Of a DNA stretch of 64,000 nucleotides, positions 433 through 51,342 are shown one piece after another. This stretch comes from a virus (taxonomy: Duplodnaviria; Heunggongvirae; Uroviricota; Caudoviricetes), in IMG/VR virus record IMGVR_UViG_2513237361_000012, positions 1-64,000 of that record; one strand, 5' to 3'. A model generated the notes under the pieces. The model made no database searches, was not told the origin of the DNA, and saw only the letters and a list, made by a program, of their open reading frames with translations. The translations under genes were made by a program, and so were the position numbers. Numbering within the stretch: the stretch's first letter is position 1; the number at the start of each line of letters is the position of its first letter.

Positions 433-1170
433 TCACTTCGGGTATGGCTGAACCCTGAATAGCTTGGTGTTTAGGCGCTTTTTTGCGCGCTTATTCAGGA
501 ATCTGATGTAGCGATACTGATTAAATTTGTGTACCACGGCCCGCTCCTTATTAGCCCGCAAATACACACCTCGTTGCCCTCCGCGCTTAATCGCGTTCAT
601 CGCTATCTCGTGATACCACTCGCCGTCCAGTTCGTAGAACGTGCTTTCGTGGCTGCCTATAAAATCAAAATTCGACGCCTGATATACCACGCCAGCACGT
701 CCGCAGCGTTCATCTGCAAAGGACTGAACCCACTCCACTGACGGGTACAGTAACCTGATGGTTTTCAGCGCGTAGCTGATGGCCCGTGATTCAGAATTGC
801 GGGGCATGTCGTCGTGTAGCCACATGCGGTTCAGTTCCATATAGCCCCGGTTATCCGTTTCCAGCACAACACGACGCCCTGAGCTGGGGTTAAGGGCATA
901 TCCCCACTGAAGAACGCCAACCAGATCACGTCCGCTGAATACGCCCAGATGCAGGTAGGAGTTATTCACAAAACGGCGGGAATAGTGTTTTGTCTGAATG
1001 ATTGTGCGGGCCAGCCAGCAGGATATGGTTTCAACGCGCAGCTCCTTTGAACCATAGCCGACAATCCGGCCTTCATACTCAATAACGCAGGGTTTTGTCA
1101 GAATGCGTGATTTCTTCTCTTTTCCCACAATACAGCTCCGTGGGATGCTCTTTGGCATTCGATATGACAA
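433..1170 (-). CDS. mom: Mom DNA-modification protein (start codon uncertain)
   Basis: Translation matches the phage Mu Mom protein from memory; sits at distal prophage end directly downstream of and overlapping com. Confidence 0.8.
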
Positions 1171-41342: not shown

Positions 41343-41918
41343 CTATTTAACATACTTGACTGTTAAACTTATAATTTTACCAATTATTTCAATGTCTTCT
41401 ATCTTGCATTCGAAGGCTCTGTTTCCACCCTCGACGAAGATTCTTCCACCGGGTAAACGAGTAATGTCACGGATCGTTATTTTGCCATCAATACTTATTA
41501 CCCATTTACCATCACGTATATCATCAAATTCCTTATCACAAATAAATTCAGAATTATTATCTGTGATTACAAAAAGATTCTTGAATGCCGACGGTAGAAA
41601 TTCTCTATCGAAAATATAAAAACCGTCTTCACACAAGGCCCCATCAGATAATACATATTTAGCAACTTCCATAGTATTTGTATTACCTGAAGTTTGCTTT
41701 GAACCATGCCCGGTTGTGAGCCAATTAAGCGAGGCGCCTGTTTCAAGGGCGCACTGGATTACCCATTCTGCTGGGAATGAGTCACGCATGTAGCGTGTGG
41801 CGAGTGTACTTTTAGAGATTCCTAAATGATCGCACAACGCCTGTCGAGTCTTGAATCCATAAGCTTCTACCATGCGCTCTATAGCGCCTCGTCCGCCTTT
41901 CTCCAAATTCATGGTCAC
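41343..41918 (-). CDS. cI: Immunity repressor CI (186 type)
   Basis: 191 aa with N-terminal HTH (QALCDHLGISKSTLATRY); position int-cI-apl-cII. Confidence 0.75.
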   Translation of the reverse strand: MTMNLEKGGRGAIERMVEAYGFKTRQALCDHLGISKSTLATRYMRDSFPAEWVIQCALETGASLNWLTTGHGSKQTSGNTNTMEVAKYVLSDGALCEDGFYIFDREFLPSAFKNLFVITDNNSEFICDKEFDDIRDGKWVISIDGKITIRDITRLPGGRIFVEGGNRAFECKIEDIEIIGKIISLTVKYVK

Positions 41919-42037
41919 TCCAAGTGAACTTTTATCTTGACGATTTCACCGTGCGATCGTATGTTTATGGTGTTCACAAAATACAAACGATCCGTATTCG
42001 TCCTGATTAATCATCATTAAACGAGGAATGTTGCATC
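41919..42037. promoter_or_regulatory. cI/apl switch region with candidate lytic promoter
   Basis: TTGACG-17 bp-TATGTT upstream of apl; intergenic region between divergent cI and apl. Confidence 0.4.
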
Positions 42038-42259
42038 ATGAGAACTAACATTTCAATCACTCTTACCACGCCTCATGTGACTATTGAACGCTATAGCGAG
42101 CTGACAGGGCTATCCATCGATACCATCAATGACATGTTGGCTGATGGACGCCTTATCCGTCACCGTCTGCGCAAAGATAAAAAACGCGAAAAAGTGATGA
42201 TCAACATAGCAGCAATGACCGTTGATGCGCTTTCAGAATGCAATCTAAACCTTAATTAG
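42038..42259 (+). CDS. apl: Apl/Cox-like excisionase-regulator
   Basis: 73 aa small basic protein in the apl position immediately upstream of cII. Confidence 0.55.
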
Positions 42260-42285: not shown

Positions 42286-42801
42286 TTGACCATGTTTGAT
42301 TACCAAGTTTCCAAACATCCACATTTTGATGAAGCCTGTCGTGCATTCGCATTGCGCCACAACCTGGTGCAACTGGCAGAACGTGCTGGCATGAATGTGC
42401 AGATTCTGCGGAACAAGCTGAACCCAGCTCAACCTCATTTATTAACCGCACCAGAAATCTGGCTGCTTACCGATCTGACTGAAGATTCAACGCTGGTAGA
42501 TGGTTTTCTGGCTCAGATTCACTGCCTGCCATGCGTACCGATTAATGAGGTTGCAAAAGAGAAACTGCCGCATTACGTCATGAGCGCAACTGCAGAGATC
42601 GGACGTGTTGCAGCAGGTGCGGTATCTGGTGATGTAAAAACTAGTGCCGGTCGTCGTGATGCTATCAGCAGCATTAACTCTGTAACACGACTGATGGCGC
42701 TGGCTGCTGTTTCATTGCAGGCCCGTTTACAGGCTAATCCTGCGATGGCGAGTGCAGTTGATACCGTGACTGGCCTCGGTGCTTCATTCGGTTTGCTGTG
42801 A
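42286..42801 (+). CDS. cII: CII lysogeny-establishment activator (186 type)
   Basis: High similarity to phage 186 CII over its whole length ([11 protein letters not shown]...SFGL) by recall. Confidence 0.85.
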
Positions 42802-43009
42802 GGTGCTTATGCTGACGAAAGAACCATCATTTGCATCGCTGCTGGTAAAACAAAGCCCGGCAATGCACTACGGTCACGGCTGGATCATGGGTGAGGATGG
42901 TAAACGCTGGCATCCGTGCCGTTCACAAGATGAATTGCTGGCAGAACTATCTACGAAAAAACGGGGGAACAAATGGCTATTGAAGGCGCTGCGGCTACTG
43001 TTCCATTAA
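42779..43009 (+). CDS. Hypothetical early protein (fil position)
   Basis: 76-aa ORF following cII. Confidence 0.35.
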   Translation: MLHSVCCEVLMLTKEPSFASLLVKQSPAMHYGHGWIMGEDGKRWHPCRSQDELLAELSTKKRGNKWLLKALRLLFH

Positions 43010-43314
43010 GCCCCGGTGAACGCCTGAATGGACTTAATCACATAGCGGAATTAAGGGCGAAAGTTTTTGGCCTGAATATTGAGTCAGAGCTTGAGCGGTT
43101 TATTAAAGATATGCGTGATCCACGGGATATCAATAACGAACAAAATAAACGAGCACTGGCAGCCATATTCTTTATGGCAAAAATTCCGGCTGAACGTCAT
43201 AGCATCAGCATCAATGAGCTGACCACTGACGAAAAGCGGGAGTTGATTAAAGCAATGAATCATTTTCGTGCAGTGGTGAGCTTATTTCCCAGACGGCTAA
43301 CCATGCCGAATTAA
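42973..43314 (+). CDS. Hypothetical early protein
   Basis: 113-aa ORF in early operon. Confidence 0.4.
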   Translation: MAIEGAAATVPLSPGERLNGLNHIAELRAKVFGLNIESELERFIKDMRDPRDINNEQNKRALAAIFFMAKIPAERHSISINELTTDEKRELIKAMNHFRAVVSLFPRRLTMPN

Positions 43315-43375: not shown

Positions 43376-43615
43376 TTGATTATGCGTAATATTGAAATCC
43401 TCACGACTAAAACCGGACCGGATGATGCAGGGCTTAATATTTTACTGACAGAGGCTCGTCTGGAAGAACGCCGGGCAAGGGCTGAAGCAATGGCAGCTCG
43501 CCTTGATAGCCTGGCGTGTCATATCTCATCCCGTCAGCTAAACCACGTGGAAGCGGCAGAACTGCTGCGTGTGGCTGCTGAAGCAATCCAGAACGAAGCG
43601 CAGGAGATCCACTAA
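43376..43615 (+). CDS. Hypothetical early protein
   Basis: 79-aa ORF with RBS (AGGAG) upstream. Confidence 0.45.
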   Translation: MIMRNIEILTTKTGPDDAGLNILLTEARLEERRARAEAMAARLDSLACHISSRQLNHVEAAELLRVAAEAIQNEAQEIH

Positions 43616-43842
43616 TGGCTGATGCAATGGATCTCGTACAGCAGCGCGTTGAAGAAGAACGCCAGCGCCATATCCGTGCTGCCCGTGCCAAAACACCGGG
43701 CGTGTCTCGCGTGCTTTGCATTGAGTGTGAAGCGCCAATTCCGCCAGCACGCCGCCGTGCCATTCCGGGTGTGCAGCTTTGCATTACCTGCCAGGAAATT
43801 GCAGAGCTGAAAGGCAAACATTACAACGGAGGTGCTGTATGA
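43615..43842 (+). CDS. TraR/DksA-family zinc-finger protein
   Basis: CIECEAPIP...CITCQ four-Cys motif; overlaps dam start by ATGA. Confidence 0.6.
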   Translation: MADAMDLVQQRVEEERQRHIRAARAKTPGVSRVLCIECEAPIPPARRRAIPGVQLCITCQEIAELKGKHYNGGAV

Positions 43843-44696
43843 GCACCATTCTGAAATGGGCGGGTAATAAAACCGCCATTATGTCCGAACTGAAAAAATA
43901 CCTTCCTGCTGGCCCGCGACTGGTTGAACCTTTCGCGGGTTCTTGTGCTGTGATGATAGAGACGGATTACCCCAGCTATCTTGTTGCGGATATTAATCCT
44001 GATTTAATCAACCTCTATAAAAAGGTTGCTGCTGATTGCGAGGCGTTTATATCTCGTGCCAGAGCTTTATTTGAGGAAGCAAACAGTGAGCTGGCTTATT
44101 ACAACATAAGGCAGGAGTTTAATTACTCAACTGAAATTACTGATTTCATGAAAGCGGTATATTTCCTGTATCTCAATCGTCACGGTTACCGTGGGTTATG
44201 TCGCTATAACAAGAGCGGGTATTTCAACATTCCCTACGGTAATTATAAAAATCCGTATTTCCCTGAAAAAGAAATTCGCGCATTTGCAGAGAAAGCCCAG
44301 CGATCAACGTTTATCTGCGCCAGCTTTGATGAAACGCTGGCGATGCTGCAGGTGGGGGATGTGGTGTATTGCGATCCGCCTTATGACGGTACGTTTTCCG
44401 GTTATCACACTGACGGCTTCACTGAAGATGACCAGTATCACCTGGCATCCGTTCTTGAACATCGGTCATCAGAAGGACATCCCGTCATTGTTTCTAACAG
44501 TGACACATCCCTGATCCGTTCGCTGTATCGCAATTTTACTCACCACTACATCAAGGCAAAACGCAGCATCAGTGTGGCAGCTGGTGATAGTAAATCTGCA
44601 ACAGAAATCATTGCTGTTTCCGGGGCGCGCTGCTGGGTGGGATTTGATCCTTCGCGTGGCGTAGATAGTTCTGCTGTGTACGAGGTGCGTGTATGA
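43839..44696 (+). CDS. dam: DNA adenine methyltransferase (Dam-like, N6-A MTase)
   Basis: N-terminal KWAGNK...PFAGS (SAM binding) and DPPY catalytic motif. Confidence 0.85.
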
Positions 44697-47107
44697 GTCA
44701 TGACGATATGAGCAACTCTAGCGGCTTTAACGAGGCCGCTGCATCATTTTCATGGAACGGCCCGAAAAAGGCCATTAACCCTTATCTGGACCCGGCGGAA
44801 GTTGCGCCGGAGTCTGCACTTTCAAACCTGATCACTCTGTATGTTGCCGATAACGAGCAGGAACAACTGCGCCGCGAGGCACTGAGTGAGCAGGTCTGGG
44901 AGCGTTATTTCTTTAATGAATCCCGTGATCCTGTCCAGCGCGAAATGGAGCAGGATAAGCTCATTAGCCGGGCAAAGCTGGCGCATGAGCAGCAGCGTTT
45001 TAATCCAGACATGGTCATTCTGGCTGACGTCAACGCCCAGCCTTCCCATATCAGCAAGCCGCTGATGCAACGTATTGAATACTTCAGCAGCTTGGGCAGG
45101 CCAAAGGCTTATTCCCGCTATTTGCGTGAGACGATTAAGCCATGTCTGGAACGACTGGAGCATGTACGCGACAGTCAGCTATCCACTTCTTTTCGCTTTA
45201 TGGCAAGCCATGAAGGGCTGGACGGCCTGCTGATCCTGCCTGAAATGAGTCAGGATCAGGTGAAACGCCTGTCTACCCTTGTCGCTGCGCATATGAGCAT
45301 GTGTCTTGATGCCGCTTGTGGTGATTTGTACGCCACCGATGATGTTAAGCCAGAAGAAATCCGCAAGACATGGGAAAAGGTGGCAGCGGAAACCCTACGT
45401 TTGGATGTCATCCCGCCTGCGTTTGAGCAACTCCGTCGGAAAAGAAACCGCCGTAAACCAGTGCCCTATGAACTCATTCCGGGCTCGCTGGCGCGTATGC
45501 TGTGCGCCGACTGGTGGTATCGGAAATTGTGGAAGATGCGTTGCGAATGGCGGGAAGAGCAGTTGCGTGCTGTCTGCCTGGTCAGCAAAAAAGCATCTCC
45601 CTATGTCAGCTATGAAGCTGTGATGCATAAACGTGAGCAGCGCCGTAAGTCGCTGGAGTTTTTCCGTTCTCATGAACTGGTGAACGAAGACGGAGACGCG
45701 CTGGATATGGAAGATGTGGTAAACGCCAGCTGCAGCAACCCGGCGCATCGCCGCAATGAGATGATGGCCTGTGTTAAAGGTCTGGAGCTTATCGCGGAAA
45801 TGCGCGGTGACTGCGCCGTTTTCTACACCATTACCTGTCCGTCACGTTTCCATTCCACGCTCAATAACGGCAGACCCAACCCGACCTGGAAAAACGCGAC
45901 GGTAAGACAAAGCAGCGATTATCTGGTCGGTATGTTTGCTGCATTTCGTAAGGCGATGCACAAAGCCGGGTTGCGCTGGTATGGCGTGCGGGTGGCTGAG
46001 CCGCATCACGACGGCACAGTTCACTGGCACCTGTTGTGTTTCATGCGCAAAAAAGACCGCCGCGCCATTACTGCATTGTTGCGTAAGTTTGCTATCCGTG
46101 AAGACCGCGAGGAGCTGGGCAATAACACGGGGCCGCGCTTTAAGTCTGAGCTGATTAACCCGCGCAAAGGAACGCCGACAAGCTACATAGCGAAATACAT
46201 CAGTAAGAACATTGACGGGCGTGGTCTGGCTGGCGAGATCAGCAAGGAAACGGGTAAATCTCTTCGTGATAACGCTGAATACGTGAATGCCTGGGCGTCT
46301 TTGCATCGTGTTCAGCAATTCCGCTTCTTTGGTATTCCGGGGCGTCAGGCTTACCGTGAACTGCGATTGCTGGCTGGTCAGGCGGCAAGGCAGCAGGGTG
46401 ACAAAAAAGCAGGTGTGCCGGTACTGGATAACCCGCGCCTTGATGCCATTCTGGCTGCTGCTGATGCTGGTTGTTTTGCCACCTATATCATGAAGCAGGG
46501 AGGTGTACTGGTTCCCCGTAAATATCACCTCATCAGAACCGCTTATGAAATTAACGAAGAGCCGACCGCCTATGGCGATCACGGTATTCGTATTTATGGC
46601 ATCTGGTCACCCATTGCAGAGGGCAAGATCTGCACTCATGCAGTGAAGTGGAAAATGGTTCGTAAGGCCGTTGACGTTCAGGAGGCGGCAGCCGACCAGG
46701 GCGCTTGTGCCCCTTGGACTCGTGGCAATAACTGTCCCCTTGCTGAAAATTTGTACCAACAGGAGAAAGATAAATCAGCTGATGGGGACACCAGAACAGA
46801 CATTACCCGCATGGATGACAAGGAGTTGCACGATTACCTGCACAGTATGAGCAAAAAAGAGCTCCGGGAACTGGCAGCAAGGTTACGCCTGGTTAAGCCG
46901 AAACGGCGTAAAGACTACAAACAGCGAATTACAGATCATCAGCGACAGCAGCTCGTCTATGAACTGAAGTCCAGAGGATTTGATGGCAGCGAGAAAGAGG
47001 TCGATTTACTCCTTCGCGGTGGCAGTATTCCGTCAGGAACAGGCCTGCGTATCTTCTATCGGAACCAGCGTTTGCAGGAAGATGATAAGTGGCGGAACCT
47101 GTATTAA
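44693..47107 (+). CDS. A: Replication initiation endonuclease A (P2/186 gpA family)
   Basis: 804 aa, rolling-circle initiator-like, canonical position after early genes. Confidence 0.8.
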
Positions 47108-47870: not shown

Positions 47871-48929
47871 TTAATTTTCAATTCCCTCCATTTTACAATG
47901 AGTTTTTTCCCAGAACTGTAATACAACAGGACTAGCCCACTCTGGCATCAGTGCGTTATTTAAAAAACTGAAAACATCATGAGACGCATCAGCATTTTTT
48001 CTAAGGAATTTCCAGCCTTTTCTAGTATTTATCTCAACAATACCTAACCCACCATCATCAAACATATGCATCTTGAATTCAGGATTGTTTACACCTAGAG
48101 ATTTTATTTCTTTTATGTATGGACTATCTTCATCCATAAATATTTTCTCTATGTGCTTAGCACAATGATATATTTTATTTCGATAAGTTGATACGCTCAC
48201 AGCGGTACGCGCTGTTGTTATTCCCATTCCTAATGGGGCATATGCTTTTCCATCCATCACTACGGGCAGATTTATTCCATTTTTTCTTAAGTTTGCAATA
48301 TCTGAATCTGTAGTTGGATGAATACAAGCTAAGCCTGAAATACCTTTCATTTCAAATATTTCTGCTGCTTCTGGCCAGTTGCGTATGAATGTTTCTACCA
48401 AATCTCTTTGAGAAAAAAGATTTGGTTCTATGTTTTTATCATGATGTTTTATATCAATAAAAAGCACAGCGTTTGAGTACACCTTCAGGAATAATACCCA
48501 CTCAGCACGATCTGAGTATTTTTTACTTGAACTTACTGGATTTAATGGCAGATGGAGGTGATGAATCCCCCAATCAGCCCATAGGTTATCCGTTCTTTTC
48601 GTCGCCTTTTTACCGCTTGTGTCATTGAATAATGTTAATGTTTTACTCTGATAAGGATTTACATCACCACCAGTAGTAAACAACATCTCGATTCTCTGCA
48701 ATCCAACCCTTGCGCCATCGTGAATATTTTCAGGAAATCGATCTGATTTTAAAATTATTCGTTTTTGTGGAACAATGTAGCGTAAAAGAAAATCACACCA
48801 CCTCAGTAGAGGATCGTGAAGATTTGAGTGCCCGGATTCATCATATAATAACCCAAATGCTTGAATTCCCTTCTCTGAAATTTCGTCAATATCTTTGATT
48901 AGATTAATATTTTTTCGTGCGTCCAACAT
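47871..48929 (-). CDS. Hypothetical 352-aa protein, accessory cargo
   Basis: Long uninterrupted AT-rich ORF between tum-like gene and cos/retron; no family recognised by eye. Confidence 0.6.
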   Translation of the reverse strand: MLDARKNINLIKDIDEISEKGIQAFGLLYDESGHSNLHDPLLRWCDFLLRYIVPQKRIILKSDRFPENIHDGARVGLQRIEMLFTTGGDVNPYQSKTLTLFNDTSGKKATKRTDNLWADWGIHHLHLPLNPVSSSKKYSDRAEWVLFLKVYSNAVLFIDIKHHDKNIEPNLFSQRDLVETFIRNWPEAAEIFEMKGISGLACIHPTTDSDIANLRKNGINLPVVMDGKAYAPLGMGITTARTAVSVSTYRNKIYHCAKHIEKIFMDEDSPYIKEIKSLGVNNPEFKMHMFDDGGLGIVEINTRKGWKFLRKNADASHDVFSFLNNALMPEWASPVVLQFWEKTHCKMEGIEN

Positions 48930-49323
48930 ACTAACTCCGTTTAAATATAATTTTTTAGTATTTCAGTTAATTAATATCTATACGCCGTTATAGCTGAATT
49001 TTCCGGTGATTTCAGGGCACATTAACCAATTTAGATAATACTATAGTAATGGTTGGGCTGATTTTTCAAGAACAAAAGTAATTTTCAAGCTTTGTAACAT
49101 GTTGATTTTCCACTTTTCGCTCAAGCGAGCTTTCATCTTTGCAAGCCCATATGTTCGTTTTTCAAGCGATTATTCAGATACGTTAACTTCCCATGGCAGT
49201 GCATGACTATGCTGCATGAAATCGCATGATCGATCGAGGATCGTCTATGCTTAGACCAGCCAGAAATGGCGGGCTTTTGCTCATGTCATGCAGCTGCATG
49301 AAAACCACTGCATAAAGTGGGCA

Positions 49324-49342
49324 GGCGTGGCGGGGATACGAG
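49324..49342. other. cos-like cohesive-end site
   Basis: GGCGTGGCGGGGA matches the first 13 nt of the 186/P2 cos sequence as I recall it; position between A-side genes and Q. Confidence 0.4.
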
Positions 49343-49412
49343 GGCGCGCTATCACGTAAAATAGGCAAAATACTTCTGGAAAACAGAAAGTTGAAGTGAT
49401 ATGTTCATAAAC

Positions 49413-51342
<1,930 letters not shown>

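Follow-up and report, generated by a model that had tools for sequence, protein, structure and literature searches.

A solitary Dam-family methyltransferase in the early operon of a 186-type prophage that carries retron Ec67

Introduction

Enterobacterial hosts possess a Dam methylase of their own, which acts on the same GATC sites as a phage-borne Dam would, and to our knowledge all known hosts of the phage Dam clade considered here are already Dam-positive. Why, then, do P2- and 186-type phages of such hosts retain a Dam gene that selection conserves? A literature search for experimental work on the Dam of P2-like prophages returned only general or unrelated papers. The question is raised here by a dam-like gene at 43839..44696 (+ strand) of the window, that is, of the whole stretch of viral DNA that was analysed (64,000 nucleotides, positions 1 to 64,000 of IMG/VR record IMGVR_UViG_2513237361_000012). 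We will argue that this reading frame encodes an active, solitary and most probably GATC-specific Dam, a conserved early lytic gene of 186/Fels-2-type phages that would top up the host Dam before packaging. To this reading we assign a probability of about 0.85.

Assignment of the methyltransferase

The gene starts with ATG and encodes a protein of 285 amino acids that belongs to the alpha-group (D12 class) of SAM-dependent N6-adenine DNA methyltransferases. An in-frame TTG start at 43779 also appears in the mechanical list of open reading frames; the annotated homologues agree with the ATG at 43839 and not with the TTG. PF02086 (Pfam) gives a single end-to-end match to the product, with 253.3 bits against a cutoff of 22 (E=3.8e-75, profile positions 1-253 of 253), and the Dam subfamily model TIGR00571 (NCBIfam) scores 318.1 bits, its cutoff being 114.85. 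Among solved structures, E. coli Dam is the best match (2G1P, E=6e-73), followed by DpnM and T4 Dam (1YFJ, E=1e-16), and the PHROGs assignment is phrog_56, DNA methyltransferase (E=1e-119). The full-profile match, the subfamily score and the structural hits together bear out the Dam-family identity that the first-pass annotation had proposed.

The equivalog model for the housekeeping Dam, NF008152, scores 286.5 bits with this product, under its cutoff of 441, and an orthologue of the housekeeping enzyme is therefore not what was found. Judged by its sequence, the protein is a member of a phage clade distinct from the host dam.

The SAM-binding motif I, F32-A-G-S-C36 (43932..43946, + strand), aligns to FVGAG of E. 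coli Dam, and the Cys in place of its third Gly is shared by 105/105 aligned members of the phage clade. The catalytic motif IV, D179-P-P-Y182 (44373..44384, + strand), was located by sequence and alignment; DPPY is kept in 103-104 of the 105 relatives, and a GATC is present inside its codons. Both motifs had been named in the first description of the 285-residue protein, and both are there, within domain matches far above chance. In the chain, motif I precedes both the recognition domain and motif IV, which is the alpha order, and the protein is collinear with E. coli Dam over residues 4-260. Past the stretch that can be aligned to E. coli Dam follows a C-terminal tail of ~22 residues (about 263-285; 44625..44693, + strand), conserved throughout the phage clade with the pattern CW.GFD..RG.DS...

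With E. coli Dam (EcoDam; PDB 2G1P, 4GOL, 4RTJ) the prophage enzyme thus shares the alpha-group architecture, DPPY and the GATC-contact residues. It differs from it in the changes N120->R, R137->N and G39->C (the last in motif I) and in the extra C-terminal tail, and also in that its gene is phage-borne and stands in a lytic operon, and is not the housekeeping orthologue. The clade-wide substitutions at R118 and N135 and the conserved tail are the only unusual traits of the prophage Dam, and they are mildly unusual.

Sequence specificity and activity

The residues that would read the target were compared in an alignment that combined the prophage Dam and E. coli Dam with 105 relatives at 70-94% identity. 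The prophage and E. coli enzymes are 47.5% identical over 255 aligned positions (residues 4-260). In the E. coli enzyme, discrimination depends mainly on R124, which reads guanine in the fourth base pair. Y119 is intercalated at the inner A:T pairs, the third base pair is contacted by L122 and P134 and the first is recognized by K9 and Y138, and N120 forms a hydrogen bond to a base; within the Dam family, the contacts to the first base pair are variable (PMC4417163). The DNA-recognition hairpin of the prophage Dam comprises residues 117-137 (44187..44249, + strand) and was placed by the alignment and by family conservation, with the residue roles taken from PMC4417163. Its residues Y117, L120, R122, P132 and Y136 correspond to Y119, L122, R124, P134 and Y138 of E. 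coli Dam. In E. coli numbering, K9, Y119, L122, R124, P134 and Y138 are kept in the prophage Dam and in at least 102 of the 105 relatives, which means that 6/7 of the GATC-reading set (these six and N120) are preserved. The seventh, N120, is replaced by R118, always Arg across the clade, and the DNA-contacting R137 is replaced by N135, which is Asn or His across the clade.

Three comparisons of dam have enough divergence for an estimate of selection. The Nei-Gojobori dN/dS is 0.19 against Salmonella phage RE-2010, 0.20 against the Klebsiella phage and 0.14 between those two, and the gene is under purifying selection. Since the GATC-reading residues are conserved and dN/dS is about 0.14-0.20, we infer an active GATC methylase; as far as the residues tell, the prophage Dam very probably methylates GATC.

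It could be argued that the substituted clade enzyme has an altered or relaxed specificity and methylates a target other than strict GATC, in which case protection would cover another set of restriction enzymes. The changes N120->R and R137->N/H are indeed clade-wide and come together with an added conserved tail, and the NF008152 score is under the cutoff for the housekeeping equivalog. However, R124, the main discriminator at the fourth base pair, is kept, and so are L122/P134, Y119 and K9/Y138, and we regard a changed target as quite improbable. Another option considered is that dam is an inactive relic. Fused or shortened versions do exist among the database entries, and phage phi80 has a frameshifted dam pseudogene, but the copy in the window is full length with every motif present, its dN/dS is 0.14-0.20, and the identical protein sequence is found again on 35 contigs. 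A relic is extremely unlikely on these grounds, and an active, most probably GATC-specific Dam is the reading retained below.

Genomic setting and expression

The operon in which dam lies begins beside the gene of a 186-type CI repressor (41343..41918, - strand; PF07022, PF16452), which is transcribed divergently from it. The early genes, all on the + strand, were assigned with Pfam and PHROGs and have the same order in relatives: Cox/Apl-like (42038-42259), CII (42286-42801), Fil-like (within 42779-43009), DUF5347 (42973-43314) and DUF2732 (43376-43615). They are followed by a TraR/DksA C4 zinc-finger gene of 75 aa (43615..43842, + strand; PF01258, TIGR02419), by dam, and by gene A (44693..47107, + strand), the 804-aa replication initiator endonuclease (PF05840, E=5.5e-127). 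Beyond gene A come a DinI-like gene, two cargo genes, and then the portal, terminase and capsid genes. The order from the divergent CI through Cox/Apl, CII, Fil, DUF5347, DUF2732, TraR/DksA and Dam to gpA is that of the 186/Fels-2-type Peduoviridae early operon, and it is likewise annotated in E. coli NCTC8623, RE-2010, E. coli AMSHJX01, the Klebsiella phage and E. coli S10. The gene had been described as part of a prophage early operon, and its position between the CI-proximal early genes and gpA confirms this.

At both ends dam overlaps its neighbour by ATGA. Upstream, its ATG (43839-43841) shares bases with the TGA of the TraR/DksA gene (43840-43842), and downstream its own TGA (44694-44696) shares bases with the ATG of gene A at 44693. 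The overlaps and the place directly upstream of gene A, as first noted, can be read in the sequence. A hairpin of 10 pairs followed by a T-rich run is seen at 44719-44741 (+ strand), within gene A close to its 5' end and ~25 nt past the dam stop; it may have a regulatory or attenuator-like function, or have arisen by chance.

A consensus scan of the + strand from cI to dam yields one promoter-like site, the sigma-70-type TTGACG-17-TATGTT at 41937..41965 (+ strand), between cI and the first early gene, and none that would belong to dam itself. From its position, this site is presumed to be the early lytic promoter of the dam operon. Because there is a single promoter-like site, and because each gene from DUF2732 through A either touches or overlaps the next, dam is expected to be co-transcribed and translationally coupled with gpA. 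Gene order and the consensus scan together suggest that Dam is most likely repressed in the lysogen and produced upon phage replication. The suggestion that it alters host gene expression is speculative, and such an effect would probably be redundant; the promoter of the operon adjoins the CI repressor gene, and dam has no promoter-like site of its own.

On the far side of cI lies the integrase gene (39928-41103, - strand). The mechanical reading frame runs from an upstream ATG and has 391 aa; annotated homologues are shorter, with some 339 aa (in NCTC8623, 1020 bp), so translation probably begins at an internal start. Between rcdA and this integrase, at 38837-39820 (- strand), there is a gene whose DUF4917 product has a SIR2-like signal, though a weak one, and is a match to PDC-S21, a candidate defence family (E=8.8e-122). 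The gene is present in NCTC8623 and replaced in AMSHJX01, and it is probably cargo at the prophage end.

We also considered whether dam could belong, as the methylase, to a restriction-modification system or another kind of defence system with its partner nearby, for example PD-T4-7 or the retron. Defence genes are in fact found 3-5 kb downstream of dam, in a cargo region, known to be variable, that extends from gene A/DinI to the portal gene (47871..51342; PADLOC, NF038237). The immediate neighbours of dam, however, the TraR/DksA gene and gpA, are both core phage genes, and Pfam, NCBIfam and PADLOC detected no restriction-modification nuclease nearby. In addition, the cargo past gene A varies in every relative examined: it is an AIPR protein in Salmonella phage RE-2010, DprA in E. 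coli AMSHJX01, an Abi-alpha protein in the Klebsiella phage, and the retron without PD-T4-7 in E. coli S10. The dam-A module is unchanged in all of these and in NCTC8623. Since dam-A stays constant while the adjoining cargo varies, the methylase is solitary and has no co-inherited nuclease, and a defence partnership of this kind is scarcely tenable. The top PADLOC model for the product is accordingly orphan-MTase (E=4.7e-110), and the orphan status claimed at the outset, with no adjacent restriction endonuclease, stands.

The first gene of the cargo region, PD-T4-7 (47871-48929, - strand, 352 aa; PADLOC E=8.8e-144), is a single-gene defence system that adjoins the retron in the P2 cargo hotspot; its product has no match in Pfam, PHROG or NCBIfam.

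Distribution and relation to known systems

The gene is common. By megablast it is found in 1239/5426 complete E. coli genomes at any coverage (23%), and in 1232 at a coverage of at least 80%, and a further 53 records with copies are those of phages of Klebsiella, Salmonella and Escherichia. At the protein level, a Dam-family homologue occurs in 475 phage records (E<=1e-20), and a search of 5.8 billion proteins gave 6559 Dam homologues at E<=1e-20, the best 120 of the 6559 spanning Enterobacterales. Close copies of dam carry the annotation DNA adenine methylase, and the NCBI name for the exact protein, found on 35 contigs, is 'MULTISPECIES: DNA adenine methylase [Escherichia]'. The nearest complete genome, E. 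coli NCTC8623, has the gene at 99.9% identity in the same arrangement, with a 'DNA adenine methylase' between a 'TraR/DksA family transcriptional regulator' and a 'replication endonuclease'.

The names in the exact-sequence cluster are generic, and the name 'Retron EC67' was not confirmed there. In the 90% cluster, Dam and gpA sequences occur together, probably through fused gene calls. The entries P0038, P0040, P0086, P0088 and P0139 join the Dam domain to gpA (PF05840) or gpD (PF05954) domains; such fusions probably stem from prophage remnants with frameshifts or deletions, or from artefacts of gene calling.

The Dam ORF of the 1990 study of the Ec67 prophage reportedly also has 285 aa. That Dam was reported by Hsu, Inouye and Inouye (PNAS 87:9454; cited in PMC8989520 and described in PMC7826664). 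According to the description in PMC7826664, the Ec67 element is a 34-kb 186-related prophage that carries retron Ec67 and a Dam methylase ORF, its 186-related nature being credited there to Dodd and Egan (1996, Virology 219:115). The 186-type prophage of the window likewise contains an Ec67-family retron and dam. As far as this published description reaches, the likeness lies in the 186-type prophage, the Ec67-family RT-Toprim, the retron ncRNA and dam, which in the window is upstream of gene A; relative to the same description, the window adds PD-T4-7 beside the retron.

Among named phages, gp10 of RE-2010 (Felsduovirus) and gp07 of ST512-KPC3phi13.2 (Kapieceevirus) are 94.9-95.9% identical to the window gene in nucleotides over 858 bp and are likewise placed between a DksA-like gene and gene A. 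The two phages differ from the window in their hotspot cargo, AIPR and Abi-alpha, and RE-2010 also has a different repressor type. T4 Dam (1YFJ), P1 Dmt and many other phage Dam homologues resemble the product as solitary GATC-type adenine methylases on phages, but they are far more distant, at 31-48% identity or less, and stand in other genome contexts.

The feature is therefore real, and it is an ordinary, widely annotated solitary phage Dam that has been known since 1990. The importance that the first-pass annotation gave to an orphan Dam holds with regard to its identity and context; its significance was overstated, the gene being present in 23% of the genomes and reported in 1990. Its discovery value is small, since 'DNA adenine methylase' is assigned automatically in thousands of enterobacterial prophages.

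Proposed biological role

We now consider what an active, solitary Dam in this position would do. Using SAM, the enzyme would flip the adenine to be methylated into the DPPY pocket; the sequence that it reads is most probably GATC. Its gene would be coupled in translation to the upstream TraR-like gene and to gene A, and repression of the early promoter by CI would keep it silent in the lysogen; upon infection or induction, Dam would be made alongside gpA. Multicopy DNA is under-methylated by limiting host Dam, and an anti-restriction function is ascribed to phage Dams (bioRxiv 10.1101/2020.06.22.160242). The phage enzyme may thus add to the limiting host Dam, such that rapidly replicating phage DNA becomes fully methylated at GATC before it is packaged. 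Progeny DNA in this state would be shielded from GATC-cutting restriction enzymes of the next host, and full methylation may also avoid the consequences of under-methylated GATC, for example the action of MutH and SeqA. The presence of a host Dam in all known hosts counts against the selective benefit that we infer for the phage enzyme.

The features that mark the clade, namely R118, N135, the Cys of motif I, the ~22-aa tail and the invariable coupling to gpA, might also point to a Dam that is tied to phage replication or to sensing by co-resident defence cargo, which we hold to be a rather long shot. It could, for instance, mark the products of gpA-initiated replication, or control the retron promoter through the GATC cluster described below. 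The gene would become moderately interesting if its role went beyond anti-restriction and the topping up of methylation, as in replication, avoidance of mismatch repair or methylation sensing of the retron type.

The retron itself is a complete Ec67/Eco2 (type I-C) element at 49414-51342 (+ strand), consisting of an ncRNA and an RT-Toprim protein. The ncRNA (about 49414-49545, + strand) was placed by the inverted repeats on either side of it, CACGCATG/CATGCGT, and by the fact that it is 100% conserved in E. coli S10; Rfam at gathering thresholds gave no match over 36000-64000, the retron ncRNA included. The RT-Toprim (49582-51342, + strand) has 586 aa counted from the ATG at 49582 and is recognized by NF038237 with 706 bits (cutoff 450) and by PADLOC (2.2e-217). 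About 170 bp upstream of the ncRNA there are three GATCs within 15 bp, at 49228-49242, a cluster that lies among repeated TGCATGA motifs. The abstract of the 1990 Ec67 paper is said to remark on three GATCs in the RT promoter region and to raise the control of the retron by Dam.

A link dedicated to the retron was rejected. The retron region, at a coverage of at least 80%, is present in only 14 genomes, as against 1239 with dam, so dam is not maintained for the sake of the retron. The msr/msd region, moreover, contains no GATC; the msDNA could therefore not be methylated by a GATC-specific enzyme.

A broader regulatory (epigenetic) role is compatible with the topping-up of methylation. In such a role the phage Dam would tune promoters of the phage or its cargo through particular GATCs, the candidates being those of the early-promoter spacer and the cluster upstream of retron Ec67. 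One GATC does lie in the promoter spacer, at 41955, and a second at 41989, in addition to the cluster at 49228-49242; furthermore, according to a review, Dam methylation favours excision of the P2-like prophage SopE-phi (PMC7380047). On the other hand, L003, a relative with another immunity type, keeps the same dam but lacks the GATCs of the switch region, the retron cluster is down to two GATCs in E. coli S10, and the disparity of 14 genomes with the retron region to 1239 with dam applies here as well. The same sites are, in addition, open to methylation by host Dam. We consider a regulatory role unlikely. The GATCs of the early promoter, taken as a conserved regulatory feature, were rejected, as they are missing from L003 with its different immunity region.

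If Dam acts on phage DNA as a whole, the overall GATC content of the prophage is of interest. With expected counts from a Markov model, the P2-like prophage has 86 GATCs where 107 are expected (ratio 0.80), and GATC is not avoided; the ratio in the host flank is about 0.9. Such counts are consistent with a role of Dam in the methylation of phage DNA. In the neighbouring Mu-like prophage (320-36250), GATC is strongly depleted, with 53 observed and 154 expected (ratio 0.34).

This neighbour, a transposable prophage of ~36 kb (about 307-36253) with MuA, MuB, a repressor, Com and Mom, bears on one further suggestion, that the phage Dam affects the mom control region. The com-mom pair is present, with Mom at 433-1170 (- strand; PF25680, E=6e-75) and Com from 1264 (- strand), each 89% identical to its counterpart in phage Mu, and some 80-100 bp upstream of com there are two GATCs, at 1341 and 1359. 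In principle these could be methylated by a phage Dam. An effect of the phage Dam on mom is speculative, and it would probably be redundant because host Dam would already methylate the same GATCs; dam is, besides, probably silent in the lysogen. The Mu-like prophage interrupts the host gene ybjI, with one half of the gene at 1-318 and the other at 36250-36771 (- strand), and it is flanked by ATATC at 302-306 and 36254-36258, an apparent target duplication of 5 bp. Its ends are unlike those of canonical Mu and contain repeated TTATTCAAGATA motifs.
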